A DNA stretch of 64,000 nt from the IMG/VR virus record IMGVR_UViG_3300020153_000001, positions 1-64,000 of that record; one strand, 5' to 3'. The notes beneath the pieces were generated by a model. That model searched no databases. It was not told the DNA's origin and saw only the letters and a list, made by a program, of their open reading frames with translations. Source of the DNA: a virus. The position numbers and the translations under genes were made by a program. Positions 1,757 through 63,204 of the stretch are shown here, in pieces (within the stretch, counting starts at the first letter, position 1; each line of letters opens with the position of its first letter).

Positions 1757-1776
1757 TTTTGACTCCGGAGTCAAAA
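1757..1776. repeat. 20-bp palindrome TTTTGACTCCGGAGTCAAAA (copy 1, perfect)
   Basis: Read directly; about 40 bp upstream of the A1 start. Confidence 0.95.
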
Positions 1777-5525: not shown

Positions 5526-6454
5526 GTTAACGCTCCTTCTGCAGACGCCTTAATAAAGACCGCTTCGACTACATCGAGGAAGCTGTCAATGCATGTTTCA
5601 TCAACCGGAACATTAAGCCAAAATAGCATCGTTGCAAAATCTGATGTTTTCACGTTGCGCATAAGTCTGATAATATAGGGCCATAGCAGCCGAGCATTTC
5701 TAAAAGACGCTCCGGCTACGTCAATAAGCTGCCAACAAATCAGACTAGCAGACGAGCTGTTATTCAACAAGTCTGTGCAACATTTCGACATGTCGGTTAG
5801 CGTATCTACAATAAGGCTAACGGCCTTTTCTTCTGAGGCGCGGCATGTTGTAGCAAGATTGACTAAAAACTCGATTCTAGATCGGCAGCAAAGCAGTTTA
5901 CATAGCCCTTCTATGTCCCTTTCGATAATCTCCGGACAACAATCCAACAGCTCCCGCAGCAGTAACAGCCTTCCTGCATCAGAAGTAATCCTGGCTGCGA
6001 CACTACGCACAAATGCCGTGCCGTCGATGTTGCTTGGAACTATTTTGAGAAGCACGCACAGCAGGCGCGCTATGCGGTAAGCCCGATCTTCCCTGTCTAA
6101 ATCAATTTCGTCTAATAGTTTCTCTGCAACGCGCCATAGCATCTGCTTGTCTGATTCCGAGAGGGCTGATCTGTCTATTGCTAGAAGATATGCCTCGAAA
6201 GCAGAAATCAAAACCAATGCGTCGTACGTGCCGATTCTATATAAGAACTCATCAACTACTCGGCGTACTGGCTCTACGGACAACAGCTTTCCAGCCGTAT
6301 GTCCTGCTTCTTCATCAAACATCAGCCCAATTAGCTCGTCGCGCTTGTCTTGCGACAAACAGGGCGCCAAGATAGCGCAAATATCCTTGAAGACGGTATC
6401 CTTAGCCGCATCGACAATTTGGCCAGCGCGCTCGTATAGCTTGTAGTCTGACAT
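5504..6454 (-). CDS. Alpha-helical repeat hypothetical protein
   Basis: 316 aa, AAGGAG SD, overlaps the next gene. Confidence 0.75.
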   Translation of the reverse strand: MSDYKLYERAGQIVDAAKDTVFKDICAILAPCLSQDKRDELIGLMFDEEAGHTAGKLLSVEPVRRVVDEFLYRIGTYDALVLISAFEAYLLAIDRSALSESDKQMLWRVAEKLLDEIDLDREDRAYRIARLLCVLLKIVPSNIDGTAFVRSVAARITSDAGRLLLLRELLDCCPEIIERDIEGLCKLLCCRSRIEFLVNLATTCRASEEKAVSLIVDTLTDMSKCCTDLLNNSSSASLICWQLIDVAGASFRNARLLWPYIIRLMRNVKTSDFATMLFWLNVPVDETCIDSFLDVVEAVFIKASAEGALTWQRQQS

Positions 6455-8477: not shown

Positions 8478-8497
8478 GTTTAACTCCGGAGTCAAAA
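8478..8497. repeat. Palindrome copy 3 (GTTTAACTCCGGAGTCAAAA, 2 mismatches)
   Basis: Read directly. Confidence 0.85.
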
Positions 8498-8578: not shown

Positions 8579-8598
8579 TTTTGACTCCGGAGTCAAAA
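8579..8598. repeat. Palindrome copy 4 (perfect)
   Basis: Read directly; 101 bp from copy 3. Confidence 0.95.
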
Positions 8599-10641: not shown

Positions 10642-10661
10642 TTTTGACTCCGGAGTCAAAA
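10642..10661. repeat. Palindrome copy 5 (perfect), immediately upstream of the ruvC ATG
   Basis: Read directly. Confidence 0.95.
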
Positions 10662-10702
10662 GTTCGTAGATTCTCACATAAATTGTGCACAAACAGCTAA
10701 AA

Positions 10703-10756
10703 AATTCAACGGCGGCCTGACTGATCCAACCGGGGACCAGCCAGGCCGCCTTTTTT
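10703..10756. terminator. Bidirectional terminator-like hairpin
   Basis: GGCGGCCTG...CAGGCCGCC stem (10711-10750) with T6 after it on the plus strand and TTGAATTTTTT on the minus strand. Confidence 0.55.
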
Positions 10757-11385: not shown

Positions 11386-11470
11386 TTCCCTAGTTAAAAA
11401 ACGACAAAAAGTAAACCGGGAAGGCTACAAAGCCTTCCCAATATTAAATGCCAACATTTTAGGCAACTAT

Positions 11471-19356: not shown

Positions 19357-19410
19357 TAAAAGGCTCCTTCTAAAAATAGAACACTAAACCGACAAGTTAG
19401 GGCATAGCTA

Positions 19411-19440
19411 AAATAAAAAAGGGACGGCGAACCGTCCCAT
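19411..19440 (-). terminator. Intrinsic terminator ending the tail operon
   Basis: Minus strand GGGACGG-TTCG-CCGTCCC followed by TTTTTTATTT. Confidence 0.8.
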
Positions 19441-19451
19441 ATTTAAATGCC

Positions 19452-19483
19452 GCTAATTTTTGACTCCGGAGTCAAAAATTAGC
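19452..19483. repeat. Palindrome copy 6, extended to a 32-bp perfect palindrome
   Basis: GCTAATTTTTGACTCCGGAGTCAAAAATTAGC; core 19458-19477; overlaps the TAA of 19479-19889. Confidence 0.95.
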
Positions 19484-29629: not shown

Positions 29630-29649
29630 TTTTGACTCCGGAGTCAAAA
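29630..29649. repeat. Palindrome copy 7 (perfect)
   Basis: Read directly; 1 nt after the TAA of 29651-30418. Confidence 0.95.
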
Positions 29650-34904: not shown

Positions 34905-34930
34905 CAATTTTGACTCCGGAGTCAAAATTG
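34905..34930. repeat. Palindrome copy 8 (core 34908-34927, extended to 26 bp); contains the protease TGA stop
   Basis: CAATTTTGACTCCGGAGTCAAAATTG. Confidence 0.95.
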
Positions 34931-36319
34931 CATGGAAACGGCCGCGGCAGCCATTTTCTTGAAATCGGGACTATCTATGTGGTTTGACAACACCGCTAAC
35001 TGATACATTGCATACTCGCACGCTAGCACCGGGCCTAGGGCAGCGTCTGCTTTATCGGCCAGCCTAACGTAGCCTAGACTGCTGGCACTCTTAACAGAAA
35101 GGTCAAAAGGTTTAATAGAGTAGCACAAGAGCGAGCTATCTAGCGATCCGGCGCATTTTGTCATTTCGCGTTGGACGTACGGATTACTTTCCAAGACGGA
35201 GACAACGTCAGCTTGTCGTGACAGCTTGGTAAATACACCCGGCAGATGATCTGTAAAGTCAGGAGCGCCTAACAAATCAGCCCAAACTTTAGGGGGTAGT
35301 AATATACCCAATCGGCCGGCCGCCGATAGCTGCTCGTATTTGTCGGCATCTTTTATAAAAACGCGATTTCCGCTACTCGCTACGCGGGAGATGTCGGCTA
35401 GTCTCCTTGCATAACTTTCGTCAAATGCCGCTGTTTTCTCAACTTCAGCTAACGTGACTAACGCTTTATACTGCTTCTTAACGGCTGACGACGGAAGAGC
35501 GTCAATATACCAGACAGGAAGCGCTAGTTTTATCCGCTCGGCAAGCTCTGCCCCAGAGATAACACGGCCAGAAGCTTCTGCCTGCTTAGTAAGCTCTCCA
35601 TATACGGCAATCGAATACGCTATTCTGTCGGCGGGACGAAGAACATGGGAGATATCGAACCACTCGCAGATGGGGTTTACGGCACATAGGGTATGGCCGT
35701 CGTCAAACGTTTTGCCTATGTTGTTCTTTAGCCCGCCGTACTTAACACATCGATCAGGCCCGCAGTACTCAAGCCTATTCCTGGCTTTGTTGCCGCAACC
35801 AGAACATACGTCGTACGGCACCCTGGTCGCCATGCTTACGGGTATATCCTCCCCTTTTGACAGAAGCTCTATTTCATCGTCGGCGACCAGTCCCTTATTA
35901 CGCTCTGCGGCTTCTTTAGTGCCGTTCAGGTATACTAAGAGCTCTATTCTTCCAGCAGGCTTATTGTAATATGACGCTTTTACAATGCCATAGCTACGTC
36001 TAGGGTCTTTATTGATGTGAGACCTGTAAAAGTAAGCAAACTTAGTGAATGTGGGATGGTCTCGTTCACAAGTCTCTGAAGGAAAATAGTCGCCGTTTTT
36101 ATTTGGACCGAAGTGTTCTCCGTCTCCAAGCGCTATAACATGGATAGGGACTTCGCCCTTCTTAGGCGGCGACTTTTGTAGCACATCTACAAAATACGCA
36201 GCCGCACGCTTTAGCAGCTGCTTCTTATCCTCCCCAACCAGCCCACGAGAAGCCACTTTAATAGCATATGTGACTGGCTCGTCAAAGGACTGGCTATTTG
36301 GAGGAACAACCTTGAGCAT
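34922..36319 (-). CDS. Prohead (capsid maturation) protease with Zn-finger insert and C-terminal extension
   Basis: PNKNGDYF, HINKDP, VSMATRVPYDVCSGCG and FDISHVLRPAD motifs; upstream of scaffold and MCP. Confidence 0.8.
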   Translation of the reverse strand: MLKVVPPNSQSFDEPVTYAIKVASRGLVGEDKKQLLKRAAAYFVDVLQKSPPKKGEVPIHVIALGDGEHFGPNKNGDYFPSETCERDHPTFTKFAYFYRSHINKDPRRSYGIVKASYYNKPAGRIELLVYLNGTKEAAERNKGLVADDEIELLSKGEDIPVSMATRVPYDVCSGCGNKARNRLEYCGPDRCVKYGGLKNNIGKTFDDGHTLCAVNPICEWFDISHVLRPADRIAYSIAVYGELTKQAEASGRVISGAELAERIKLALPVWYIDALPSSAVKKQYKALVTLAEVEKTAAFDESYARRLADISRVASSGNRVFIKDADKYEQLSAAGRLGILLPPKVWADLLGAPDFTDHLPGVFTKLSRQADVVSVLESNPYVQREMTKCAGSLDSSLLCYSIKPFDLSVKSASSLGYVRLADKADAALGPVLACEYAMYQLAVLSNHIDSPDFKKMAAAAVSMQF

Positions 36320-40132: not shown

Positions 40133-40904
40133 TTTTTGACTCCGGAGTCAAAATTTCAAAGTTCGGCACTAATTTGGCGCTTTCGAGAAGCTTCTTGTCA
40201 CCCCAGTTCCAACCCAGTCGGCTTATGCTGTCAGCCAGGACTTTATGCAGATTGTCGATTTCTGGTCTCTTCGCGTCATCTGACACGGCCGACAGGAACT
40301 TCTCGGCGTTTGTTTCGACAAGTCTATCGCTAAACGCTACCTTAACAGCTAGACGTCGCAGGGCAGTTTGCTTAAGGCATATCTTCCAGAAATCTTTACT
40401 CGAAACGCCGGACATTATCGAAGCATCATATATCACCTCGTCGATAACTTCCTTACCGCCGCAGAACGCAAAGAACTTCCATATAGCCTCCCTGGACGGC
40501 TTACCATCAATTACTTCTATAATGGGGTATATAAGCCGTTGGAATATGTAGCTGTGATTGTTCAACCTATCTCTTATATTATAAAACCAAGCTTCGTAAA
40601 ACCGCACGACGTCACTAGATGCGGATAGTCTGCTGGCTATATCGTTGTCAGACTGACCGGCTATAATCCTTGCCTCAATTTCCCACTTCACCGAAGCCAA
40701 CACTTCTTTGGAGTAAATGCTCTCAGCCGTACGCTGCTCAGAAGTTTGCTTGCCGCGCATGTAATCTATAGCTAAAAGCACATAATCATCGTTATCGTCG
40801 GTACGCGGCAATTCTGAATTGTCCTTGAGCGTTTGCGCACGGCGCCATCGCCAGTCCGGTGGTCGCCATATATCGGACTTGGTAAATTCGTGCTCTGATT
40901 TCAT
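40122..40904 (-). CDS. Hypothetical protein (possible HTH; small-terminase-like candidate)
   Basis: 260 aa; IAGQSDNDIASRLS HTH-like segment; C-terminal LTPESK is encoded by the palindrome. Confidence 0.6.
   Translation of the reverse strand: MKSEHEFTKSDIWRPPDWRWRRAQTLKDNSELPRTDDNDDYVLLAIDYMRGKQTSEQRTAESIYSKEVLASVKWEIEARIIAGQSDNDIASRLSASSDVVRFYEAWFYNIRDRLNNHSYIFQRLIYPIIEVIDGKPSREAIWKFFAFCGGKEVIDEVIYDASIMSGVSSKDFWKICLKQTALRRLAVKVAFSDRLVETNAEKFLSAVSDDAKRPEIDNLHKVLADSISRLGWNWGDKKLLESAKLVPNFEILTPESKNGS
40134..40153. repeat. Palindrome copy 9 (perfect)
   Basis: Inside the 3' end of 40122-40904; 1 nt before the ATG at 40132. Confidence 0.95.
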
Positions 40905-45540: not shown

Positions 45541-48500
45541 TTAAGCGATAAGGTCAGTCTCTATACCAGCTAATGGTACGCTAGCCGTTCCAAAGGAATC
45601 ATTTCGTTTACCAGACTGGGCTATATTCTGACCTGGTGGGTTAACCTGAGGTGCTGTTCGAGTTGGAGGAACTCCCGACGATCTAGACGAGAGAGTACGC
45701 ACAAGAGGAGGAACTTCCTGAGTTGCAACTAGCGGCGGCTGGCTGCCGCCCGCAGAATATATAGACCGACGACCGGGAGCCGGCAACGATTGAACATTTT
45801 CGTCGAACGGAGCTGGAGGCTTATGGCCTTCAGATAATCGTTTTAGGGAAGAATACATTTGGTAGTAGCCTTCGCTTAACTTACCAGGAATATTCCGAAC
45901 ATCGCCGCTTAAGATTGCCCCAGCGACTCGGTGAATATAATCCATATTTCCTCCCGTACCGGACGCGAGCAACGCATAAACTACATCGCGGTATTCGATC
46001 TTACCGAGTTGATAGTCTCTCACAATCTTACTCACCACGTCTACAAACTCTGGTGTAAATCTACCCCTACCTACAGTGGCAAACTGCTTCCTAATTATAT
46101 ACGCGGAATAGTTCGCCAAGTCCTGCCGGGTAGGATTTTCTGGCAGCAAATACACGGGCGGACCATAGTCCGGTTGTGTCGTATCTGACTGAGACGCCGG
46201 CGGTCGGGTCGGACGCGTTTGTGCTACCGTAAATTCATCGTCCAATGACTCCCTTTGCCCGCGAAGAAACTCTCTTACACGCCGCCTTTCAGCTATTCCA
46301 GGATCTATAGGCACTCTATTTTCTCCAGCATATTGGCGATCACGCGACCTATCCCTGAACGGTAATGGTGTTCTTTTCTGTCTTTCTTCCCAGGCCTTTC
46401 TCCACCAGTCGTGTTCGTGGCCGAAGTTGCCGCCCGGGAATAATTCATCAACGTCTTTAGAAGCTCCCGGATACGCCGCGGATCTGCCGTGTAACATGAT
46501 GTCGTAGTCATCAAGAACTTTAGTACCACGGTTGGTGATCTGGTTATATGCTTCCTTGATCTTGTCCCATTCTTCCGGAGAGTAAATACTCTTTAGCTGA
46601 GCTACTAAATTTTCAACTGATGCCCTACCCTTTGGACCATGTCTAGCCTCGTGCCCTAGAGAACTTTGAATTTGCAACAGCCTTATCAGACCTATCGCAT
46701 TTCTGACGGAATGGCCGTCGACGTACTGATTACCGTTTTCGTCCTGTTTAGCAAAATGCCGGCTCGCAATACCTATAACGTCTGCTTTATCCCAAAACGT
46801 GTCATAGCCTAACCTGCGCCAGTTGTAGCTATCGCTCCACTGGTCCGCGATTTTTAGCGCGTCCTCAGAAACCTTTCCATACACAGTATCAATAACTCTG
46901 GTGTAGTCTTTATAATCCCGGTTCTTCATTACTTGGTTGTAATAGCTAGTCGCTTCCTTGTGTTTTTGCGCCGATTCCTCCAGCCTCTCATCTATGGTTT
47001 TTTGTACGGTCACTACTCTACCGTCCGGGAACACGGCAAACGTTCGACCGGTCTTTTCATCTTTGTATACGCCAGGCGATAAGCCCTTAGGCGGCGGCTG
47101 CTGCAAGACCTTGATGTGTGGTGGTATATTTTGTGCCGGTTCCCTTGCAGCTTGTTGTTGTTGCTGTTGTTGGTCAGCCTCCGGTTGTTGGTCAGCCTCC
47201 GGTCGCCGGTCAGTACGTCTAGTACGAGCCTCCTGCACTCCATCTTGCGTAAATCCTGGGGCTATGCTTAGGTTTGGCGCACGTTTAGACAGTTTACTAG
47301 CGTCAGCCTTGTCGACATATTGGTTTACGTGCGGCCTTGCCAGCAGCTGTCCAACAAGCACGTGACCTAGCGACGCTTTTTGGTCTTTCGGCAGAGACTG
47401 AAGTAGTGCTAAGTATGGCTCCAATGTATATAAAAGCTTACCATATTCGTCCTGCGGAAGCACATCGCTAAGTTCTTCCATCGAAATTCTGAGCTCATCG
47501 GCCAGCTTTCCAACGGTCATGTTGAGATCGACGGGCTGCTTCTCATTTATTAATTCGGCAAGTTTCAATATACCATCATATCGATCAAGCCCCCTTAAGA
47601 AGTTGATGATATCTATAATCGCCTTGAATGGAACTTTATCGTCGACGCTTTCAACATATTTCTGTTTTATAAAATGCGACACCATAAAATTAATCGCATC
47701 ATCGGGCACGTTGGCCGCTTTTGCTTTAGCGATTAACTCTCGCAGCGTTATTTCCGGCAGGTTTAACTCTATCCACGCGTCATTCACCGATTCTTGTGCT
47801 TGTTTCGTAAACGGAAGCAGCGCTGTCGCGATAGACGCAAGCTTACTATTGAGTCTGCGTAGATAAGTTTGCCTCACGTTATCCGAGAATTCTCCTCCGA
47901 AAATAACCTTGCAGGCTTCGTCTAACCGGCCTTGCTTGGCAGCGCCTTTAAGGTATGATCTTAAAAAATAGTACCACGTGCCAGAATCGACCTGTCTTGA
48001 CTCCTTTATTTGCTTAGCGAAAAAGTTCGCGGCTGTCGCTTCTGGCGAAGGAAGCGGAGTAGTACTGAGCTTTCTATATATCTCGTTAAAACGAGAATAT
48101 GGCGGCGGCTGGATGCCGAGTCTGCTTGCTAGTTGTTCTCCAATCTTGTCGGCAAGCGGTTGTAGTTGTGGATGGTGTGGATAGTATCGAGAAACTATCC
48201 CAAGGAACTTATCAACAAACTCTGGGGGCAGATTGTTGCCACTATATATCTCTGGATGTTTTCGGATAAGATCGCGAGCCTGCGCTACGAAATCCTCAGG
48301 AAACGCGCCCGGATTTATCCCTGATACTCGCAGCAGCGCTGCGGCGGCGGTTCTCTGAAAAAAGCTGCTTTCGGGGTTAAAGTAGTCCAAAATCGGCTTG
48401 ATCTCGTCTCTTTTAACAGGCGGAACTATAATCTTGTAGTACTTATGAATGTCGCCAGCGTCCGTCGATTCTTTAATAAGTGGTCGCGGGCAGTTAGATA

Positions 48501-48543
48501 AGTTATTGATAGCGTTATTGAGTCTGTTGACATATGCGGACAT
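45541..48543 (-). CDS. 1000-aa multi-domain hypothetical protein (putative inner-head/ejected)
   Basis: Helical domains joined by Q/P-rich linkers; FTKQAQ; isolated HEARH; SD from palindrome copy 10. Confidence 0.85.
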   Translation of the reverse strand: MSAYVNRLNNAINNLSNCPRPLIKESTDAGDIHKYYKIIVPPVKRDEIKPILDYFNPESSFFQRTAAAALLRVSGINPGAFPEDFVAQARDLIRKHPEIYSGNNLPPEFVDKFLGIVSRYYPHHPQLQPLADKIGEQLASRLGIQPPPYSRFNEIYRKLSTTPLPSPEATAANFFAKQIKESRQVDSGTWYYFLRSYLKGAAKQGRLDEACKVIFGGEFSDNVRQTYLRRLNSKLASIATALLPFTKQAQESVNDAWIELNLPEITLRELIAKAKAANVPDDAINFMVSHFIKQKYVESVDDKVPFKAIIDIINFLRGLDRYDGILKLAELINEKQPVDLNMTVGKLADELRISMEELSDVLPQDEYGKLLYTLEPYLALLQSLPKDQKASLGHVLVGQLLARPHVNQYVDKADASKLSKRAPNLSIAPGFTQDGVQEARTRRTDRRPEADQQPEADQQQQQQQAAREPAQNIPPHIKVLQQPPPKGLSPGVYKDEKTGRTFAVFPDGRVVTVQKTIDERLEESAQKHKEATSYYNQVMKNRDYKDYTRVIDTVYGKVSEDALKIADQWSDSYNWRRLGYDTFWDKADVIGIASRHFAKQDENGNQYVDGHSVRNAIGLIRLLQIQSSLGHEARHGPKGRASVENLVAQLKSIYSPEEWDKIKEAYNQITNRGTKVLDDYDIMLHGRSAAYPGASKDVDELFPGGNFGHEHDWWRKAWEERQKRTPLPFRDRSRDRQYAGENRVPIDPGIAERRRVREFLRGQRESLDDEFTVAQTRPTRPPASQSDTTQPDYGPPVYLLPENPTRQDLANYSAYIIRKQFATVGRGRFTPEFVDVVSKIVRDYQLGKIEYRDVVYALLASGTGGNMDYIHRVAGAILSGDVRNIPGKLSEGYYQMYSSLKRLSEGHKPPAPFDENVQSLPAPGRRSIYSAGGSQPPLVATQEVPPLVRTLSSRSSGVPPTRTAPQVNPPGQNIAQSGKRNDSFGTASVPLAGIETDLIA

Positions 48544-48544
48544 T

Positions 48545-48564
48545 TTTTGACTCCGGAGTCAAAA
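48545..48564. repeat. Palindrome copy 10 (perfect); holds the beta'-C TGA stop and the next gene's GGAG
   Basis: Read directly. Confidence 0.95.
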
Positions 48565-50412
48565 TTGCCTGGCCTGTTCGACAACACCCTTAGCCCATTG
48601 CTGAAGGGGTATACCTATTGCTTTAGCAGGAACAAAGCTTGTGCCGTAAATATCAGCCATAGAACCCTGTCTTACCGCCGATAGCAGCGCGCGTACCTGG
48701 TTCGAGCCAAACAGTCTGGTCATCCAGTTAGGATCAAATTCAAGCGTAGAAGCCGCACGGACCATGTATGGTTCAAACGGCGGCGGCTCGCTATGAACAA
48801 CGATGTCTTTTATACCAGCTTCCCTTAGCTCTTTAACGACAGACTGTTTGATCTTCGTACCTATGGTATAGTGCAACACGGGAACCTCTAAGTAATAGCC
48901 TATAGCGCTATCGACGGGCACCCTCATACTACCACGACGGGGCTTCCATCGCTTTACTATTTCGCCATACGGCACAATTTCGTCTAAATAAAACCCCCCA
49001 AACGGCTGGGTTATAACAACATGGTCGATAAGCCCACGTGCTAACAGCTCGACGTTTCGTCTATGTACCGGCTGACCAGCATCTCGCATGGCGTCGCAAA
49101 ACATCTTAACAAACGCGCGTCGACCTTCGCCTATTCCTTTTTGTCTCACTACCTCGGCAGGGTTAGGTAGCCCCTCCGTAATCATGTCACCGGCTTCTAC
49201 AGTATCGCCTTCTTTCACTATAGGAGGATGGCTAGGCGGCGAAAGATGCTCCACGTCGCCAACAACGATTTTCCATTGGCCGATCTCGTTTCTTGTGATG
49301 GACCGAACTTTACCATCAACCTGACTGTGTATTGCCCCGCCCACAAACGTCTTTGGGACGTTTAGCATCTGTTCGAGTACCTTAAAACCACTAAACTTCG
49401 TCACACCGCCCGTGTGCTTTGAGCTTATAGATGTTTGCGTTATTCGCTCTCCTATGGCCTGCGCCGCGGAAAGACCAGGTATGCTACCGATTTCAGGAAG
49501 TCGACCGTGTTCGCGTATACCAGCATCGACAGCATAGACGCCGTCAACTGCCGGGCTAGCAATAGGACTACGAACAACGATCTTTTTAATGCCGTCTTTC
49601 TTGAGGTCTTCGTATACCGCCGGAGTAATCTCTGTACCGGCTGGCCATCTTCCTGCAGGAAGGGCTAAGAATGCGCCGATATTGTCGGGGTCGTCTGCAT
49701 TTACCGGCAACCCTAACGGGTAAGGTAGCTTAGCCTTATGATCATGGCCTATGACAACTAATCTATGAGCCGCTCTGTTTAGAAGTTTTGAAAGATAACC
49801 GCTTCTGGCGACGCCCAGCTTAGAATCTGCTAGTCCCTTTCTTGCTCCGTAGCAAGCAGCCCAGAACTCTGCTGTCGGTACACCAGCTGAATAGCTAGAA
49901 AGGACAGGGAATGGTACAACTTCGCCAGCCCTGTCGAAATACGCCGTATCGCCCATAATAAGCCGCTTAAGCATTGCAGGATTGCCTCTGGCGCCGGAAT
50001 AGACGTGTTCATAGAATCGGTTATTCCGCGCCTTGGCCTCATCCATCGTCAATTGAAGCAGCGTTTGCGAATGGGCAAATATAGCTTCAGATATCTTTTT
50101 GCGCTTCTCGTCGTCTGGCAGATCGCTTCCCGCAATACGCTCAATATCTTTTAAGATGGCTGGACGGTAGGAATAAGAAGATGGGAGGGGCTTTAAGTCT
50201 TCAAGGGAAAAAGATGCGCCGTCGCTGGCTAGTAGCGCCTGGACCGCGAGCTGGTTAAGCCGCCTTGTAATTTGCCCGTACTTATCAGGATACTTCTTAG
50301 CAAGTTCGGCGTAGAAGCTATTTACAGACTTCTTCGTGAACTCCTCGGGCAGACTAAGGTCAGAAGGGAGAACTTCCGAGAGTAAAAGGCGGCCTACCGT
50401 AACCTGATTCAT
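48559..50412 (-). CDS. rpoC: RNA polymerase beta' subunit, C-terminal half
   Basis: TVGRLLL, SGARG, bridge helix GARKGLAD..SGYL, trigger loop AAQAIGERITQ..HTGG, VHRRNVELLARG. Confidence 0.93.
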   Translation of the reverse strand: MNQVTVGRLLLSEVLPSDLSLPEEFTKKSVNSFYAELAKKYPDKYGQITRRLNQLAVQALLASDGASFSLEDLKPLPSSYSYRPAILKDIERIAGSDLPDDEKRKKISEAIFAHSQTLLQLTMDEAKARNNRFYEHVYSGARGNPAMLKRLIMGDTAYFDRAGEVVPFPVLSSYSAGVPTAEFWAACYGARKGLADSKLGVARSGYLSKLLNRAAHRLVVIGHDHKAKLPYPLGLPVNADDPDNIGAFLALPAGRWPAGTEITPAVYEDLKKDGIKKIVVRSPIASPAVDGVYAVDAGIREHGRLPEIGSIPGLSAAQAIGERITQTSISSKHTGGVTKFSGFKVLEQMLNVPKTFVGGAIHSQVDGKVRSITRNEIGQWKIVVGDVEHLSPPSHPPIVKEGDTVEAGDMITEGLPNPAEVVRQKGIGEGRRAFVKMFCDAMRDAGQPVHRRNVELLARGLIDHVVITQPFGGFYLDEIVPYGEIVKRWKPRRGSMRVPVDSAIGYYLEVPVLHYTIGTKIKQSVVKELREAGIKDIVVHSEPPPFEPYMVRAASTLEFDPNWMTRLFGSNQVRALLSAVRQGSMADIYGTSFVPAKAIGIPLQQWAKGVVEQARQF

Positions 50413-50674
50413 GGTATCGAGCTAAGTCCTGATCCGATGGTTGTGCGGGAACAGACAACTGTGGCATAAACGGCTTGGCATCGATAACTTGCGTAGGAGC
50501 GCGTTCGGCTGGATAACCTGTCATTGACAGTACTTTTGGGAAATCAGCGCTTACGCAAGTATCGAATACAAGCACGTTTCCATTATCAAATCCTGCAGCC
50601 ACAGCGTTGCCGAATGTATCTAGTACGACAAACTTCTTACACTCTAACTCTTTATCGTCTATGATAATTTTCAT
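50360..50674 (-). CDS. Small hypothetical protein
   Basis: 104 aa; overlaps the beta'-C start by 53 nt. Confidence 0.55.
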   Translation of the reverse strand: MKIIIDDKELECKKFVVLDTFGNAVAAGFDNGNVLVFDTCVSADFPKVLSMTGYPAERAPTQVIDAKPFMPQLSVPAQPSDQDLARYHESGYGRPPFTLGSSPF

Positions 50675-54883: not shown

Positions 54884-54903
54884 TTTTGACTCCGGAGTCA
54901 AAA
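54884..54903. repeat. Palindrome copy 11 (perfect)
   Basis: 17 nt upstream of the ATG at 54866. Confidence 0.95.
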
Positions 54904-54984: not shown

Positions 54985-56703
54985 CTATTCGCGATTATCG
55001 TTTTTAATAGTCGAGTGGGCTCGTTCCAAATCGTCGACGTTCGGCGCAAGCGGTCTGGCAAGGTCGCGCATTAACGGGCTTAGGAAGTTATCCGACCCTA
55101 TTACGCGGCCGAGCGAAGAGCGTCCAAGCTTCCTATACACAGAGATACTGACATCACCTAAAGCGCTTCGACTGGGGCCTGCGCGTTCTACATAAGGTAT
55201 GACGTCCTTTATCACCCAGTCAAAAAGGCCTGTTGTTTGTTTTGCCCCGCCCGGAAGCAAACCAGCGCGCTTGGCTAATATAACAAGCGGATGATCGTCC
55301 TTACCATACACGTATGCCGTTGCTGCTATCGAAAAGGCGTTAGCGATGATCTCCCCGACTAGATTCGTATAGTAATCGTTTTCTAGCGGACTACCCTCAA
55401 ACGAATAGGTCAGGCCGTGGGCGAGCTCGTGGAAAAACGTAGATAATTTTCTATCCATCATCAGCTTTCGTTCCCGCGGCAGGTAAAGACCTGCCGCGTC
55501 GGGCGTAGGCTCCTCCGGCGAAATCCCTGGCAGAGTTCCACCGAATCTTTCATATAAGTGTTTGACGACCTCTTCGGCTCGCGCCAGCTCTTTGTCCGAC
55601 AACGTTTTATCTTCAATCGCTACACCAATAAGTCCTAATGTCCCTGCTAGCTCTCCGTGAACTAGCTCAAGCCTTCCTACTTCTCTAACTCCATCCCTCA
55701 AATCTTCTAAATCTTTTATTGATACATCGAGAAACCATATTAGATTTTCTCTGGAAGGCTCTGTTATCGGTCTGCCGTATTGCGGTCTTATTCTCGTTTG
55801 TGGTAACGCAAGAATTTCCGTGACAAGTCCGCGACCTTCTCTAGGTGTCGAATAAAGCGGCCTGACGCGCTCACTTGCTCTGCCAGCGGTAAGCCCGCGC
55901 ATGATGGACTTGATCTGCTCATCATCTACTTTGCCAGCTAGGAAATCCTTTAACTGATCAATAGAGTAGCCTCCGCTTGCTACCACTGCTGCTAGGGTAG
56001 TTCGTCTTGGGCTTAGTAGTATCTGCGATATGGCTTTTTCCCTATCCTTGCCGCTAATACCAAACATGTCAACATACTTTTCGGCAAGCAAGCGTTTATC
56101 CGCCGGGCTCATTTGATTAACGATAGGGCCGAATATTCTGTAATATTCGTCTGCCAACTGGTCGGCGGCGATGTCAGCTACACCAGGATAAAGATGAAAG
56201 ATAAGCTTTAAGAACAAGGTATCTCTTAGCGCGTCGTTAAATGGTAATCTTCCTATTATTTCCCGCTCTTTTTCTGGCGTACGCGCGAACAGGTGGCTTA
56301 GGAAACGACCGGCCAAACTGGCACGTACGTTAGGGTCAACGCTCGCTAAGAATTTAGAAAAATCTGGATTTTCGGAAAGAAGATACCTTCTGACAGGCTC
56401 GTCTAGGGCTTGTACAGCCTCTCGTCTGAACTTATCGTTGAACGTAAGGATTGATTTACGTTTTAGTTCTTCGTAAGTAGGCGTTAGCGCTTGTATTCCA
56501 GTAACTCTTGTTGTAGCGGCCTCTAACGGCGTAAGGTACGACGGCAAATACGTGGGTAATATAGCATTAGCTGCAGAATATTCCTTGGGACGGCCAGTTA
56601 GGGCAGAATAAGTAGAAGCCGGACCGGTAGGTTCCGGCTTACCTGACAGTAGTTGCTTCAGCTGGTTATAGACATAGCCTATAGGACCACCGTTACCATT
56701 CAT
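54985..56703 (-). CDS. HExxH metallopeptidase-like protein, paralogue of 53235-54866
   Basis: FHELAH and GEIIANAF; AAGGAGG SD. Confidence 0.85.
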   Translation of the reverse strand: MNGNGGPIGYVYNQLKQLLSGKPEPTGPASTYSALTGRPKEYSAANAILPTYLPSYLTPLEAATTRVTGIQALTPTYEELKRKSILTFNDKFRREAVQALDEPVRRYLLSENPDFSKFLASVDPNVRASLAGRFLSHLFARTPEKEREIIGRLPFNDALRDTLFLKLIFHLYPGVADIAADQLADEYYRIFGPIVNQMSPADKRLLAEKYVDMFGISGKDREKAISQILLSPRRTTLAAVVASGGYSIDQLKDFLAGKVDDEQIKSIMRGLTAGRASERVRPLYSTPREGRGLVTEILALPQTRIRPQYGRPITEPSRENLIWFLDVSIKDLEDLRDGVREVGRLELVHGELAGTLGLIGVAIEDKTLSDKELARAEEVVKHLYERFGGTLPGISPEEPTPDAAGLYLPRERKLMMDRKLSTFFHELAHGLTYSFEGSPLENDYYTNLVGEIIANAFSIAATAYVYGKDDHPLVILAKRAGLLPGGAKQTTGLFDWVIKDVIPYVERAGPSRSALGDVSISVYRKLGRSSLGRVIGSDNFLSPLMRDLARPLAPNVDDLERAHSTIKNDNRE

Positions 56704-56739: not shown

Positions 56740-57816
56740 CTATTTTGACTCCGGAGTCAAAGATTTTTGGGCCCTGCTACCTAAAGCCCGAATTATGGGG
56801 TCAAGCAGTCTTCCTAATCCGCCTCGCGGCCTATCGTTTCCGAATTTATCCATAAACTCCTTCACCTTCTTATAAGTGTTCGCTCTTTCCGGATACCAAC
56901 TTATCCAATGCTGCGCCAACCATCTATCCGGAATAGTGCCGCTATATCCCAGTACGGCTAGAGACGGCGGAACAAATTTCTTAGAAATCGGGAAATCCGG
57001 TACGGCTTCTTTTAAGGCCTTCCATTCTGGCCAATCTGGTTCCGGCAGCCAACCGGCGCTTACTGCCATCACGACAGGCCATGTCAGCTTATTGTTATAG
57101 TAGTCGAGAACTGCGGCGGCAAACGTGTTTGCGCCAATTTCATTTATAGTACGCCATATCGTTACCATCGAAGCCAGCCTTGGGTCTCTTACCATAACAT
57201 AAGGCTGATCTTCGTCACCCTGCAGACCAAAGTAGTCAAAAATACTTTTAGCCATGAGCGTATCCAACGAGTGTCCTAACTCGTGGGCGATAACGGCTGT
57301 TCCTTTAGGCGTTGCCATGACATCTGGATCGATGATCAGCTTACCTGTGAGTGCGTTAAATCCACCCAACAAGGAGGGCTGTCTACCGACTTCGGCTGAT
57401 GTGATATATGGCATGGCTCGAAGTGCGGCATAATCTAGAATCTGCTTAACCTTTGCCGTATCAACCAACCTTCCGCCGCTTGTAGCTGCATTGAGCGCTT
57501 GCCACAAACGCTCCTCGGATTCGGTTTGCGCCCTACCTATCGGGGAGGAAAAAAATGCCGGTGCAGAAGAACTAGCGTCTTCGGGCATAATACTATGTAG
57601 TTTGGCAACCATTTTTGTTACCGGACCGCGCAACTCCTGTTCTTCCTGATAACGAATGTCTTTTATAGTAGGACCATATTCCGACCATTGATACAGACTA
57701 TTTAATAGGTCAACATTATGTGCCCGTTGTTCGTGGTGATGTGTAACGGGGGGTTCTTTGCTTTGGGCGTTTTTTAGCAGGTTTTGTAGATCATTAACGG
57801 CTCGTTTGCAGATCAT
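56740..57816 (-). CDS. ImmA/IrrE (M78)-like metallopeptidase-domain protein
   Basis: IAHELGH and NEIGANTFAAAVL; ends in LTPESK*, encoded by the palindrome. Confidence 0.8.
   Translation of the reverse strand: MICKRAVNDLQNLLKNAQSKEPPVTHHHEQRAHNVDLLNSLYQWSEYGPTIKDIRYQEEQELRGPVTKMVAKLHSIMPEDASSSAPAFFSSPIGRAQTESEERLWQALNAATSGGRLVDTAKVKQILDYAALRAMPYITSAEVGRQPSLLGGFNALTGKLIIDPDVMATPKGTAVIAHELGHSLDTLMAKSIFDYFGLQGDEDQPYVMVRDPRLASMVTIWRTINEIGANTFAAAVLDYYNNKLTWPVVMAVSAGWLPEPDWPEWKALKEAVPDFPISKKFVPPSLAVLGYSGTIPDRWLAQHWISWYPERANTYKKVKEFMDKFGNDRPRGGLGRLLDPIIRALGSRAQKSLTPESK
56743..56762. repeat. Palindrome copy 12 (19/20 match)
   Basis: TTTTGACTCCGGAGTCAAAG. Confidence 0.93.
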
Positions 57817-57832: not shown

Positions 57833-60800
57833 TTATTTCTCGATTATCTTTATTGGCTGGTCTATAGCAATTTCTCCTCTAGCAAACGCGGCAAGCGCGT
57901 CTTTTTTCGTTTTAAATATTTTTACTGGTTTACGGCTATCGACGCGACTAGCATACCATAGGCCGATGAGATAGTCTTGTTGGGGGGTATAAACAGGCTC
58001 TGCAAATATGGCTGCTTTGAATAGATTCTTCGACGGTAGCAATTTATCGTAGGCTTCCTTGACGGCGTCGTCGGATGCGGGTACATGGAATTGCATCGTA
58101 TCGCCGTCGAAGTCAGCGCCAAAGGCCTGTGTAATAAGAGGGCTTATCTCTATGGTTTTACCCGGTATAAGAACGGGTCGAAACGCCATAATTCCGTACT
58201 TGTGAAGCACGGGCGCGCGGTTTACTACAACAGGCCGCTCTTGGATAACACGTTCCAAAGACTGCTTAGCATAGGGATGGCGCTCATTAACAAGCATATT
58301 CGCCACTAGAAACGGCGAAGCACGTAACGCTGGCGGAACGTTACGAAGCACGCTATCAGGAAGGCCGCGATGCATTAGGTCGCGAATAATAAACGGCTTA
58401 TACGCGACCCAAGCCGCCTCCTCGGGAATACCTATCTCGTCAATATCTAAAGAACTGTTCGGCGTAATGACTGCCCTACCAGCCAGCGTGGCACTAATAC
58501 CAAGCATTTTTCTCTGCATTATGCTGGCTTTCGGGCTGGAACCAACCACGGTAGCCAGCAAACCCTTAATACCCTGCTTCTTCAGGGCGTAGCTATGTGG
58601 ATCGTCTAGGCCTGTAAGCCCGTAAAAGATGGACATGAGCGATCTTCGCTCTTCCCGTAGATCGCTAATATCCGAGGCCAGTTCTTTATAAGCGCCGATG
58701 AAGTCGATGAGCTCTTTATAAAGATAGTTCGCATCATTAACGACAAGCGTGCCGTCTTTAATCATCGAGATAGGTCGAAAGATGGGCGGAATGACTGGAA
58801 CTTTGGTCCAAAATAGCTCGGACGGGTGGATACTAAAGCGTTTGAGGCCTTCAAGGTAGTTTAGCTTTTTGATAAGCGACGACCGTTTCGATGGCGTAGC
58901 AGTTTGGAGTTCTTCCCTGGTACGCGTTATTTCTCTATCGACGTCATAGTTTTTAAATAGTTCATAAAGCGCCATCGGACCGGATATAGGCCCTTTTGAT
59001 TGACGATACCGTTCAGGTATGGGAAGCTCGCCAGCAAATATGCTAATGAGGTCCTTCTCGCTTACGCCAATCAATCTACCAAGCAGTTCCACCATGATTG
59101 GGTTTGGAACCGGCTCTGGTAGCTTGATGGCGCTCCACCGCGTGCCAGCTAGACCTCCGGTAAGACCGTCGTCAAACAGCCCACCCTCTACCGTTCGGAA
59201 ACCGTCGCTATAGACACGAACTGTCTCGGAGTTCTGAACATATCGGTTACCCGCTAGTTGATCTATATCTTTATCTCGAAGCGCAAGAAGCCGTATACCA
59301 GAACGTTCTTGGATGGGGTTAATCCCTGCCCCTCTAAGCAAGGCGACAAATTTGTGCCATATATGCGGGATCTTGGGCTGCGGTAGGCTGTGGCCAGTCA
59401 TAAATTGTCGCCATGCCTCATCGTTCGCTTGTCCGCGGATAAGTGCGGCATCGGTTATTGTGTTGTACGCGCCGTGCGCCAACAGCGCGTTAAGCTCAAG
59501 GATCCCCAACCGTTTGGCTTTTCCCGATTCACCAACAGTGGGGATATCTTCTGCGCTTGCAGCAATAGCCTCGTCTACGGCCTGAAGCTTATCTTCTGCA
59601 ATATGGCACAGGCGCAGAATATATCCATAGCCTGTAAGCGCGCGTATTTTTCTACCCGTAACGGGATCTGTGAGCACTTCTGTATCGCTAACACCATGCT
59701 TCTTTAGCACGTCAGAAACGTATTGATGCAGCCTGTCGGCGTGTTCAAAATCCTTTACATAGATTGGCTTTCCTATCTTCTTAGCAACCTTCCCTAGAAG
59801 TGCTTCATATATTTGACCAATATTAGCCCGCGAAATAATAAACGGCGACGCGATGATATCGACAGGCTTGCCATCTTCGCCTATGGGCATCTGGCTATCG
59901 GGTTTAATGATAACGACGCCTTTATTTCCATATAGCCCCGCAATCTTATCTCCTTGTTGGGTCTCGAATATCGACTTTACGATAGCAACAATGCCCTCTT
60001 TTGTCTTACCAGCCGCTATTACTATCCCAGGCGCGTCATAGTCCCACGTAACGCTGTCATCAACAAACATCTTGTGGGAAGCTCTAGCGGTGGTGATAGG
60101 AAGCATCTTGGCACTAAGAATAATCGGCTCGCCCTTACGGAGAACCGTTCCTGGCCGCGCCACGCCCTCGTTAGTATACTTCTCTAAGTCCTCAGCGGTC
60201 ATTTTGCCAGGAAATAGCGACACGTAAGCCTGTTTTCCGCTAGGCTCTGCTGTTTGGTGCTGATAGACAAAAAGATTCTCGGCAGACAGTTTGCGCGCAA
60301 ATGACTGTGAGATAACGAAAGCGTCTTCGTATGTATCGCCGGTAGCCATATAGGCAATCTTTGCGTTTGTTCCCACCGCAAGATTGCCGTTTATATCGGT
60401 AAAATTGCTATAAGCCAAAAGCTGGCCAGGCTTTACGACATCGCCAGGCTTTACAAGCGGCTCGTTATATAAAGCCGTCTGCCTGGCATAAGGCGTATTG
60501 TTGTGCAACCAGATCTTCTTTGTGCTTCGGCTGTCAGCGTCATAAAGCTCGATAAAATCGGGAGTTACTTTGCGTACGACCCCCTTATATGGGCTATAAA
60601 CGGCACCAGCGTATTTTCCAAATATTGATACAAACGGTCTTCCACGGCTATCAACCGATTGCACTAAAGGCGCTTCTCTGTTTATGATGGGCAATGCTTG
60701 CGTAATAAATCGGCTTCCCATCGCCACGCGCTGCGGGAAGCAGGCGCTTTTCATGGGGATAAGTGACGCAAGCGGACCAAAGATATGCGTTGCATCCTTG

Positions 60801-62191
60801 ATGTAATGCGTTATTTTTTCCCTTGGTACGAAGAGCTCGTAGCCTTTTGATATTGCACGAACGTAACGACGACCGCTTTCTAGCTCGCCAGGGAACGCTA
60901 TCGTAACGTCCTCTACTTGATCCGATCTTAGCCAAGTCTCCTTATTTGTCTTTGCGTCGATGACTGGAATATAAAGAAGGCCGTCCGATCCTCGTCTTGC
61001 CGAGATTGTCATCCTTGTTTCTACCCCTACTTTGAGGGATTCTGGGGTAGTAACAGGGTCGATAAATCCTAGCTGCGTAGCATGGACGTCCCTGGCAGAA
61101 GATGGGATGGCCTCTACGGCGCCTATACCACCCTCCCCCATTCGTGTAAGACGGAAGGCGTGGTCAAGGATTTCGACGGGGTTGATCTCGGCTGGCGCCA
61201 TCACAAGCCCAGAAGCGCGAATTACATGATCAACGATAGGCTGGGCTGGTCTTGGCGGTATGATCTCTTTTTTGGGATTACGCATGGCCTTCCAGAGGAT
61301 ATTTCTTAAAATGAGGCGCATCTTTGCAGGGACGTTTTCGGCAAAGATATCCTCTGGACCAAGGAACTGCTGGTTGGCCAAAGAGTCTCTATCGTCTTCT
61401 CTGGCCTTGCCTTGGAGAAGCTGGATCATCTTGGCTGTAGCTGCTAGCGCCGCGCGTTTGTCGACATAGTTCTGCATTAGCCCTAAGTTGCGGCGCATCA
61501 CGTCCTGCGCTACAGGAACTTGCAAGAACTCGCGCGCAAGATCTACATCCGTAGAGCCAAACATTCTTTTGGCAAAACGCCGCGCATCTTCTACTTTCTC
61601 TGTTACATTGCGTGCCAGAAGATCAGCACCCCATGCTTGCCTTAGCTCTTCATCAGTTACTCCGATAGCTCTTAGAATAGGATAAAGCCGAAACTTCGCC
61701 TGTCCTGCTTGTATGTAGAATATGCCTGTCGTAGGGTCGAGTACGTAACGATGGGTTTTGCCGGCTGGGAGGTTGATGAAAGCCTCCGGCTCCCCTGTCT
61801 GACGGAACCGGACGTAGACGCCAGGTTTTAGCCGTTGTTGGTTCGTAATGGAATACTCAACGCCGCCTATAACAAAGACGCCTCGGTCGGTAAGATAGGG
61901 AACTTTGGCAAGAAGTGTGCGTTTCTCGATAACGCCTGATGGCGTTGTTATTCGTATCGTTCCATAAAGATCCCGCGCCAGTGTGCTGTTTGTGATAATG
62001 GCGCGCTTGTGATTAATAGGGCTTAAGATTTCTTCTTCTGGTTCCTTGTCTTTATATTCCACGTCTTTTAGCTCGATAGTCCAGTTACCCTGGCTATAAG
62101 AAGGCGTGGAAATAAAAGAATTACGGACAGCGTCGAAGATACGCTGCCGTATCGTCTTAACATCGGCAATATCGATAAGCTCGCCAGTCAT
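57833..62191 (-). CDS. rpoBC: RNA polymerase beta subunit fused to the N-terminal half of beta'
   Basis: Beta motifs: RDVHATQLG..TPES, GDKIAGLYGNKG, SRANIGQIYE, RLGILELNAL. Junction near 59305. Beta' motifs: PVIPPIFRP, GRAVI, NRAPVLH, GADFDGD (58100-58120). Confidence 0.95.
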   Translation of the reverse strand: MTGELIDIADVKTIRQRIFDAVRNSFISTPSYSQGNWTIELKDVEYKDKEPEEEILSPINHKRAIITNSTLARDLYGTIRITTPSGVIEKRTLLAKVPYLTDRGVFVIGGVEYSITNQQRLKPGVYVRFRQTGEPEAFINLPAGKTHRYVLDPTTGIFYIQAGQAKFRLYPILRAIGVTDEELRQAWGADLLARNVTEKVEDARRFAKRMFGSTDVDLAREFLQVPVAQDVMRRNLGLMQNYVDKRAALAATAKMIQLLQGKAREDDRDSLANQQFLGPEDIFAENVPAKMRLILRNILWKAMRNPKKEIIPPRPAQPIVDHVIRASGLVMAPAEINPVEILDHAFRLTRMGEGGIGAVEAIPSSARDVHATQLGFIDPVTTPESLKVGVETRMTISARRGSDGLLYIPVIDAKTNKETWLRSDQVEDVTIAFPGELESGRRYVRAISKGYELFVPREKITHYIKDATHIFGPLASLIPMKSACFPQRVAMGSRFITQALPIINREAPLVQSVDSRGRPFVSIFGKYAGAVYSPYKGVVRKVTPDFIELYDADSRSTKKIWLHNNTPYARQTALYNEPLVKPGDVVKPGQLLAYSNFTDINGNLAVGTNAKIAYMATGDTYEDAFVISQSFARKLSAENLFVYQHQTAEPSGKQAYVSLFPGKMTAEDLEKYTNEGVARPGTVLRKGEPIILSAKMLPITTARASHKMFVDDSVTWDYDAPGIVIAAGKTKEGIVAIVKSIFETQQGDKIAGLYGNKGVVIIKPDSQMPIGEDGKPVDIIASPFIISRANIGQIYEALLGKVAKKIGKPIYVKDFEHADRLHQYVSDVLKKHGVSDTEVLTDPVTGRKIRALTGYGYILRLCHIAEDKLQAVDEAIAASAEDIPTVGESGKAKRLGILELNALLAHGAYNTITDAALIRGQANDEAWRQFMTGHSLPQPKIPHIWHKFVALLRGAGINPIQERSGIRLLALRDKDIDQLAGNRYVQNSETVRVYSDGFRTVEGGLFDDGLTGGLAGTRWSAIKLPEPVPNPIMVELLGRLIGVSEKDLISIFAGELPIPERYRQSKGPISGPMALYELFKNYDVDREITRTREELQTATPSKRSSLIKKLNYLEGLKRFSIHPSELFWTKVPVIPPIFRPISMIKDGTLVVNDANYLYKELIDFIGAYKELASDISDLREERRSLMSIFYGLTGLDDPHSYALKKQGIKGLLATVVGSSPKASIMQRKMLGISATLAGRAVITPNSSLDIDEIGIPEEAAWVAYKPFIIRDLMHRGLPDSVLRNVPPALRASPFLVANMLVNERHPYAKQSLERVIQERPVVVNRAPVLHKYGIMAFRPVLIPGKTIEISPLITQAFGADFDGDTMQFHVPASDDAVKEAYDKLLPSKNLFKAAIFAEPVYTPQQDYLIGLWYASRVDSRKPVKIFKTKKDALAAFARGEIAIDQPIKIIEK

Positions 62192-63184: not shown

Positions 63185-63204
63185 TTTTGACTCCGGAGTC
63201 AAAA
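63185..63204. repeat. Palindrome copy 13 (perfect)
   Basis: 2 nt after the TAA of 63207-63608. Confidence 0.95.

Follow-up and report, generated by a model that had tools for sequence, protein, structure and literature searches.

A repeated perfect palindrome at gene boundaries of a split-RNA-polymerase phage is a candidate site for a symmetric DNA-binding protein

The closest described counterparts of M1, a 20-base perfect palindrome (TTTTGACTCCGGAGTCAAAA) found in the first 64 kb (the window) of the 135.5-kb IMG/VR virus record IMGVR_UViG_3300020153_000001 (G000; CheckV completeness 94%; window coordinates equal G000 coordinates), are two sets of repeated phage sites. In Cluster A mycobacteriophages, more than 20 near-identical short sites, the stoperators (L5 gp71), often touch start or stop codons, and one phage protein acts on transcription through them (PMC9283540). 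The SPBRE of phage SPbeta was predicted in silico long before its binder was found and is a 15-bp motif bound by the phage master repressor MrpR (PMC10516654). M1 resembles the stoperators in forming many near-identical sites across a phage genome in short intergenic spaces, and the SPBRE in being a repeated element of intergenic or promoter regions. However, stoperators are 13-bp, asymmetric, monomer-bound sites that work in a single orientation and serve lysogenic immunity (PMC9283540), whereas M1 is a 20–26-bp perfect palindrome with symmetric flanks that would work on both strands; its phage encodes an RNA polymerase, no integrase was found, and the binder is a candidate. Likewise, the SPBRE has about 9–10 copies in the temperate Bacillus prophage SPbeta and a binder with a recombinase fold (PMC10516654), whereas M1 has 31 copies, is fully symmetric and has a small winged-helix protein as its candidate binder.

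From sequence comparison, we put the probability at about one half that M1 is a dyad-symmetric DNA site for a phage-encoded homodimeric protein and marks boundaries of genes or transcription units. The window contains 12 matches to the 20-mer with at most three mismatches (0.01 expected) and 13 matches to its 12-nucleotide (nt) core (0.09 expected). The whole of G000 holds 31 copies, about one per 4.4 kb, and none of the reversed control pattern, and M1 is the most over-represented intergenic motif of the genome. Twenty-eight of the 31 copies are identical across all 20 nt, and half-sites are paired in 30 of 32 cases, lone ones being nearly absent. Conservation of the flanks is limited to the extended palindrome, with no directional signal seen. 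A search of IMG/VR viral contigs for the exact 20-mer returned no record besides G000. M1 is not a host regulon site, because the 18-mer occurs at chance level in bacterial genomes (nine matches, all single, in 596 Gb; 8.7 expected). The copies in the window, named below by their first coordinate and given without strand, are listed together with one neighbouring terminator; open reading frames are abbreviated ORFs, and M2 is a second motif described further below.

1757..1776: M1 copy
8478..8497: M1 variant with two mismatches, 101 nt from the next copy
8579..8598: M1 copy; its T-run and the T-tail of a GC-rich terminator hairpin are continuous
10642..10661: M1 copy; 2 nt, then the ATG of a RuvC-like gene; no nearby upstream ORF
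10699..10750, minus strand: intrinsic-terminator-like GC hairpin and T-run, about 40 nt upstream of the 10642 copy
19458..19477: M1 copy; 1 nt past a stop codon; an M2 promoter-like motif follows 6 nt downstream
29630..29649: M1 copy
34908..34927: M1 copy; supplies the TGA that ends ORF 34922..36319 (minus strand); next start about 98 nt off
40134..40153: M1 copy; the upstream ORF runs through as LTPESK; ATG 1 nt beyond
48545..48564: M1 copy TTTTGACTCCGGAGTCAAAA, the main site
54884..54903: M1 copy
56743..56762: M1 variant with one mismatch; the upstream ORF passes through as LTPESK-stop
63185..63204: M1 copy

The gaps that contain M1 follow an order of stop codon, any terminator hairpin (T-run and AGCTA tail), M1, any M2 or Shine–Dalgarno (SD) sequence, and start codon. 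M1 lies within −25 to +10 nt of the stop of a long ORF in 12 of 31 copies in G000 and in 15 of 35 in its relative G001, compared with 6–11% of random positions, 6% being the G000 value. A start codon stands 0–4 nt past seven of the 31 copies (113008, 106951, 85947, 77435, 48545, 40134, and 10642), the TGA of M1 is the upstream stop at three (128713, 48545, and 34908), and an upstream ORF reads through about four; the other copies lie free within gaps. Thus, 24 of the 31 have no adjacent start, and a separate SD follows many of them. Nearly all window genes are on the minus strand. In the whole genome, M1 also adjoins plus-strand genes at 65782, 66937, and 71561, the copy at 66937 occupying a convergent gap and that at 71063 a divergent one, and some copies adjoin noncoding RNAs. 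The conserved AGCTA after terminator T-runs was observed at 10699–10710 and in the 19400 region of the window, at 66990, 67090, and 89310 of G000, and at 13 sites in G001; TTTTAGCTA is present 9 times versus 0 on the opposite strand in G000, and 13 times versus 1 in G001.

The cellular-type RNA polymerase of G000 is split in two, a fusion of beta with the N-terminal part of beta' (beta'N) and a separate C-terminal part (beta'C). G001 is 144 kb long with direct terminal repeats, and its beta'C is 82% identical to that of G000, the median protein identity being 61%. It carries about 33–35 copies of TTTGATTCCGGAATCAAA, that is, (A)ATTTGATTCCGGAATCAAAT(T), which differs from M1 by C to T and G to A changes mirrored in the two halves, and GGAG reads GGAA in every copy. 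Among G000/G001 orthologues, M1 lies upstream of both genes in 9 cases, of one only in 6 and 4, and of neither in 71, so its placement upstream of genes is partly conserved. Sister lineages carry differing palindromes (GATTCCGGAATC, GAATCCGGATTC, TTAGAATTTAAATTCTAA, and GAATAAACGTTTATTC), each of which lies between genes, keeps its symmetry through the centre, and is the same throughout its genome, with the SD mostly outside. The further relatives are contigs found through beta'C homologues; identities are to G000 beta'C.

L018: beta'C 53%; TTTTGAATCCGGATTCAAAA; directly after the beta'C stop
L017: beta'C 50%; TTAGAATTTAAATTCTAA; four copies in 12 kb
L015: beta'C 52%; TTAGAATTTAAATTCTAA; one perfect and one imperfect copy
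L021: beta'C 55%; AATTAGTTAATATTAACTAATT; single copy
L020: beta'C 45%; GAATAAACGTTTATTC; ten copies in 22 kb; ranked first in an unbiased k-mer count; genes on both strands adjoin

Comparing these palindromes, every lineage change is mirrored in both halves, and the centres CCGG, TTAA, ACGT, and ATAT are all self-complementary; for the three lineages whose palindromes came from unbiased k-mer counting, the chance of self-complementary centres is about (1/16)^3. The palindromes of the more distant relatives are AT-rich, and there the SD usually lies 10–25 nt downstream. The closest cultured relatives, Salmonella phage Arash and Vibrio phages D69, D148, and D181, are about 28–30% identical. L016, L024, and 44-kb portions of Arash and of Vibrio phage D69 showed no repeated palindrome, and a megablast of the 48545 locus against cultured phages gave zero matches. 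Virions of Arash contain the polymerase and a sigma factor (PMC10585845), and promoter or motif information is absent from that paper.

What might read M1 can be judged from features that are shown directly: the number of copies and their symmetry, their place between genes, the way they change in concert from lineage to lineage, and their SD-like spacing. Because the stems are uniform in each genome and change together between genomes, we infer that M1 is double-stranded DNA read by a co-evolving, two-fold symmetric protein. The symmetry of the reader is suggested since every lineage change is mirrored in the other half, and read-out as DNA is favoured because the central four bases are always self-complementary, which a hairpin loop would not need. 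A structural RNA would tolerate differing stems among copies, and bases are more plausibly read in the major groove of DNA than in a short RNA stem. In the proposed mechanism, a homodimeric phage protein would bind M1 at junctions and gate transcription across them; as to the sign of its effect, the form we favour is an operator or roadblock of the stoperator kind. The site would work in either orientation because it is symmetric, and action on both strands is supported by the plus-strand genes that adjoin M1 in G000 and the genes of both strands in L020. Genes would butt against M1 because the genome is tightly packed; some upstream ORFs would end at its TGA, and seven downstream genes would use its GGAG as an SD.

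On sequence and model evidence, an 80-amino acid (aa) winged-helix protein (G000 101379–101621; Pfam HTH_24, E = 4e-10) appears to be the best candidate for the M1 binder, a lead rather than proof, and it is from such evidence that we infer the identity of the reader. The Pfam scans took in about 48 proteins, among which it and a sigma-like protein are the only ones with a DNA-binding helix-turn-helix (HTH). All four palindrome-bearing genomes checked (G000, G001, L017, and L015) encode it. The G001 orthologue is 45% identical, under the 61% genome median, and in L017 the stop of the winged-helix gene itself sits within a palindrome copy. In the recognition helix, G000 has TVQRR and G001 has TALRR, and L017 and L015, which have one common palindrome, both have V-R at matching positions (LVRKR and KVRDR). 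The AlphaFold model has a mean predicted local distance difference test score of 80, and its best structural matches are TFE-alpha (an archaeal initiation factor, the top match), PefI/PapI, Stf76, and MarR proteins. Within the parts sampled, Arash, Vibrio phage D69, L016, and L024 yielded no homologue; tblastn with the protein gave no Arash or Vibrio phage match, a word-index homology search returned only the protein itself, and the contigs of two distant homologues are 3–5 kb and uninformative. As other binders, a ParB/KorB-type protein (no ParB_N domain found) and a Cro/cI-type HTH protein (none above cut-off) were rejected. With regard to signs of temperate life or immunity, no Phage_integrase, ParB, or Cro/cI-type HTH_3 domain scored above cut-off, and G001 has direct terminal repeats.

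Several points weigh against a protein-bound boundary site. Operators do not usually agree as closely as these roughly 30 near-identical sites, a pattern seen more often in promoters of phage polymerases, and at least seven G000 copies lie just past intrinsic-terminator-like hairpins, where a start signal would be more fitting than an additional stop. The best-known global roadblocks come from temperate phages, and no tyrosine integrase was found in this phage. Variant copies differ mainly at the centre or the ends, or by wobble-compatible bases, which a hairpin model predicts likewise. In addition, it is four genomes that link M1 to the winged-helix protein, the negatives come from partial contigs, and the gene is not beside an M1 copy in G000 or G001.

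The main site separates the beta'C gene from a 1000-aa ORF, as follows.

48559..50412, minus strand: RNA polymerase beta' C-terminal part, 617 aa (Pfam RNA_pol_Rpb1_5)
48559..48561, minus strand: TGA stop of the beta'C ORF, in the 5' arm of M1 (ORF end ...ARQF-stop)
48551..48554, minus strand: GGAG in the 3' arm of M1, 7 nt 5' of the ATG; probable SD by exaptation, judged from spacing statistics and orthologue comparison
48541..48543, minus strand: ATG of the 1000-aa ORF
45541..48543, minus strand: 1000-aa ORF downstream of M1; no Pfam or PHROG match
57833..62191, minus strand: RNA polymerase beta and beta' N-terminal fusion, 1452 aa

Read along the minus strand from 48564 to 48541, the junction is TTTTGACTCCGGAGTCAAAA-A-ATG; the stop-to-start distance is 15 nt, and no second SD-like string is visible upstream of the ATG at 48543. 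The preliminary description of the window had the palindrome double as a stop codon, and the TGA of its 5' arm does end the upstream ORF at 48545 and 34908. It was equally correct in placing the GGAG of the 3' arm before the ATG at 48545, 40134, and 10642 (7 nt at 48545; at 10642, AAAAAA-ATG comes after the palindrome) and in having the upstream ORF translate the palindrome as LTPESK at 40134, where that ORF ends ...ILTPESKNGS-stop and overlaps the next ATG. This use as stop and SD thus holds at some junctions, but not as a general purpose of M1, since a start abuts only seven copies and a stop three; we regard both overlaps as secondary to the main role of the element.

Where a gene abuts M1 in G000, sequence comparison indicates that GGAG very likely acts as its SD. 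The GGAG-to-ATG distance is 6–8 nt in six of the seven abutting genes and 10 nt at 77435, and the genome-wide spacing from GGAG to start codons peaks at 6–8 nt. GGAG, GAGG, or AGGA stands 3–12 nt before the start in 83% of genes compared with 9% of random positions, a figure that is partly circular because the choice of starts used an SD score. Among the G001 orthologues of the seven genes, three have a GGAG or GAGG of their own, two abut the GGAA palindrome, one retains a degenerate palindrome that still reads GGAGTC, and one, whose orthology is uncertain, has neither M1 nor a clear SD. At the G001 orthologue of the 40134 junction (50400–50424), the degenerate sequence is TACGAATCCGGAGTCAAAT, with the G000-type GGAGTC in its 3' half, 11 nt before the ATG.

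A second motif, M2, has the form CTAAA-N16-17-GGCA(T/A)TTAA and the layout of a sigma-type promoter. It occurs 11 times on the coding strand and 0 times on the other strand in G000, and 15 versus 0 times in G001; it is present in L015, L017, L018, and L019 as well. Two M2 cores lie in the window.

19443..19451, minus strand: M2 core GGCATTTAA, strand-specific promoter-like motif
11444..11452, minus strand: M2 core GGCATTTAA, strand-specific promoter-like motif

Further M2 sites in G000 include 73904, 70323, 69956, 68336, and 67264. M2 ends 5 nt before the 5' end of the phage transfer-messenger RNA (tmRNA) and also precedes small hairpin RNAs. In the sigma-like protein (271 aa; 88383–89198, minus strand), the scan detected Sigma70 regions 3 and 4 but not region 2; the G001 counterpart is 77% identical, and an M1 copy stands 91 nt upstream of the G000 gene. 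Because M2 is present and a sigma-like protein is encoded, M1 is not the sole transcription signal. A role for M1 as a fixed-geometry activator site for M2 was rejected, the M1–M2 distance ranging from 4 to 34 nt. Two near-identical mini-units stand right after M1 (window 19380–19451 and G000 128640–128708, minus strand), each with M2 followed by a GGGACGG..CCGTCCC hairpin (with a T-run in the window copy), and they look like transcripts of about 25 nt.

Among the alternatives to a protein-bound DNA site, two place the function of M1 in RNA. The preliminary description proposed a translational coupling switch, in which an mRNA hairpin hides GGAG until the ribosome ending the upstream ORF melts it. 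SD-sequestering hairpins of this kind are known from the MS2 coat–replicase and ribosomal-protein operons, and 48545 resembles them in that its two hairpin arms carry the upstream stop and the downstream SD, respectively; however, the known structures are gene-specific, whereas M1 is one 20-nt sequence present 31 times, with a marginal stem and mostly without an adjacent start. With a TGA in the 5' arm and GGAG at optimal SD spacing, such coupling is geometrically possible at six of the seven abutting genes, where the upstream ORF ends in, at, or just beyond M1 and thus within reach of the stem (48545, 40134, 113008, 106951, 85947, and 77435), and an upstream ribosome could assist there; moreover, G001 orthologues gain an SD of their own where M1 is without GGAG. 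The switch would nevertheless cover at most six to seven of the 31 copies. The 10642 copy follows a strong terminator and has no upstream ORF; therefore, the stem is not an obligatory lock. Folding predicted a hairpin in every context, but its stability is only marginal: −5.7 to −6.6 kcal/mol, with −5.7 for the 20-mer alone, and −6.4 to −9.5 in context, with z-scores of −0.6 to −2.1 that are not significant at 40134 and 10642. The corresponding hairpins reach −3.5 kcal/mol in G001 and −2.9 to −5.1 in the other lineages; G001 lost GGAG genome-wide, in about 35 copies at once, although two genes there abut M1, and sister lineages have AU-only stems with the SD outside. Sequestration of an SD needs neither whole-sequence identity among copies nor symmetry through the centre, and it leaves unexplained the identical stems, the palindromic centres, and the copies at noncoding RNAs and in convergent gaps. 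As the purpose of M1 we therefore consider the switch quite improbable; it is possible as a local side-effect and, if true, would be an ordinary coupling device touching a handful of genes. Also improbable is an RNA hairpin recognised by protein, either a phage CsrA homologue or an endoribonuclease that would cut polycistronic RNA at junctions and leave a protective hairpin. CsrA homologues score above the Pfam cut-off in G000 and G001, and that of L019 lies right after beta'C; the G000 gene (73309–73479, minus strand; E = 2.5e-16) is directly downstream of the tmRNA gene (73528–73890), and the G001 gene is at 5391–5570. CsrA binds GGA in hairpin loops overlapping the SD, its site being A(N)GGA in a hairpin loop (PMC4066749). 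The short M1 hairpin likewise carries GGA at its apex and overlaps an SD, and G000, G001, and L018 keep the CCGGA apex while one stem pair covaries (C-G, U-A, and A-U). Unlike CsrA/RsmA sites, however, the UCCGGA apex of M1 has no A(N)GGA consensus; the stems are weak, they do not vary among the copies of a genome, an identity that recognition of a loop would not demand, and the centres are invariably self-complementary. A CsrA-mediated RNA role is possible for the CCGGA lineages and fails in L017, L015, L020, and L021, whose palindromes have no GGA.

The main rival, which we hold to be unlikely, is that M1 is a self-contained promoter for the phage multisubunit RNA polymerase, perhaps with a dimeric specificity factor; transcription would start at or near the palindrome edge and yield leaderless or short-leader mRNAs. 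Phage-polymerase promoters (the T7 class, phiKZ, and the AR9 non-virion polymerase) are asymmetric and directional. M1 resembles them in being highly conserved, multicopy, and upstream of genes, and this phage too supplies a polymerase, together with a sigma-like protein. The rank of M1 as top intergenic motif, its near-identity, and its place after terminators all suit a promoter. The M1-to-ATG distances are also like those of an untranslated leader (0–4 nt in seven cases and 15–40 nt with an SD in G000; 11–26 nt in L015, L017, L018, L020, and L021), and TFE-alpha, the top structural match of the winged-helix protein, is an initiation factor. However, M1 is not directional: it is fully symmetric without a directional flank in a genome that is nearly one-way, so that each site would fire antisense too, and the separate, strand-specific M2 already has the sigma-type form. 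Copies without a downstream gene (the convergent gap at G000 66937 and L020 3253) also speak against a promoter, as does the RuvC orthologue of G001, which does without any M1. Two simpler transcription signals were rejected. As a sigma-70 −35 box (TTGACT), M1 has no −10 element 17 nt downstream, and the start would fall inside abutting genes; as an intrinsic terminator in G000, it offers a weak stem followed by an A-run rather than a GC-rich stem and U-run, and separate canonical terminators lie upstream of several copies. Highly unlikely, finally, is a DNA site outside transcription, whether for nicking or cleavage, for methylation, or as a recombination hotspot for cassette shuffling. Perfect palindromes are typical of homodimeric nucleases and methyltransferases, and M1 includes two GANTC and one TCCGGA; yet GANTC, CCGG, and TCCGGA are not avoided elsewhere in G000, and the sister palindromes share none of these enzyme sites. 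Shuffling of cassettes at palindromes may be reflected in a G000 gene without a G001 orthologue (572 aa; 54985–56703, minus strand) that has M1 on both sides (56743 and 54884), and in the paralogous G001 cassettes with M1 ahead of each (36329/37962 and 41097/42056/43056). The strictly intergenic junction position, partly conserved at orthologous junctions, suggests a role in gene expression instead.

Two further features were observed in these genomes. G000 encodes a reverse transcriptase domain (RVT_1, E = 7e-18; 98714–99679, minus strand), and in G001 a gene near the RNA polymerase region (L001 1428–2288) contains a 51-nt tandem coding repeat of about 16 units together with proline-rich repeats.

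Should a phage protein read M1, the site would be a compact, portable transcription signal with visible drift in specificity: one half-site position has a different base in each of three relatives, and the palindromes of remoter lineages are wholly different. The relatives would then form a natural series for following joint change in a DNA-binding protein and its roughly 30 scattered sites. A bolder and less likely reading is that the clade uses a fully symmetric 18–26-bp punctuation site, at which a small co-evolving winged-helix dimer would read a self-contained start and/or stop signal for the phage polymerase. Such a punctuation logic would be unlike sigma-type or T7-type recognition, the site and its reader drifting together between lineages and genes parasitising the site for stop codons and ribosome-binding sites. 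With M1 read by a phage protein of whatever kind, M1, M2, and the AGCTA-tailed terminators would be the first regulatory grammar for a large clade of uncultured split-RNA-polymerase phages.

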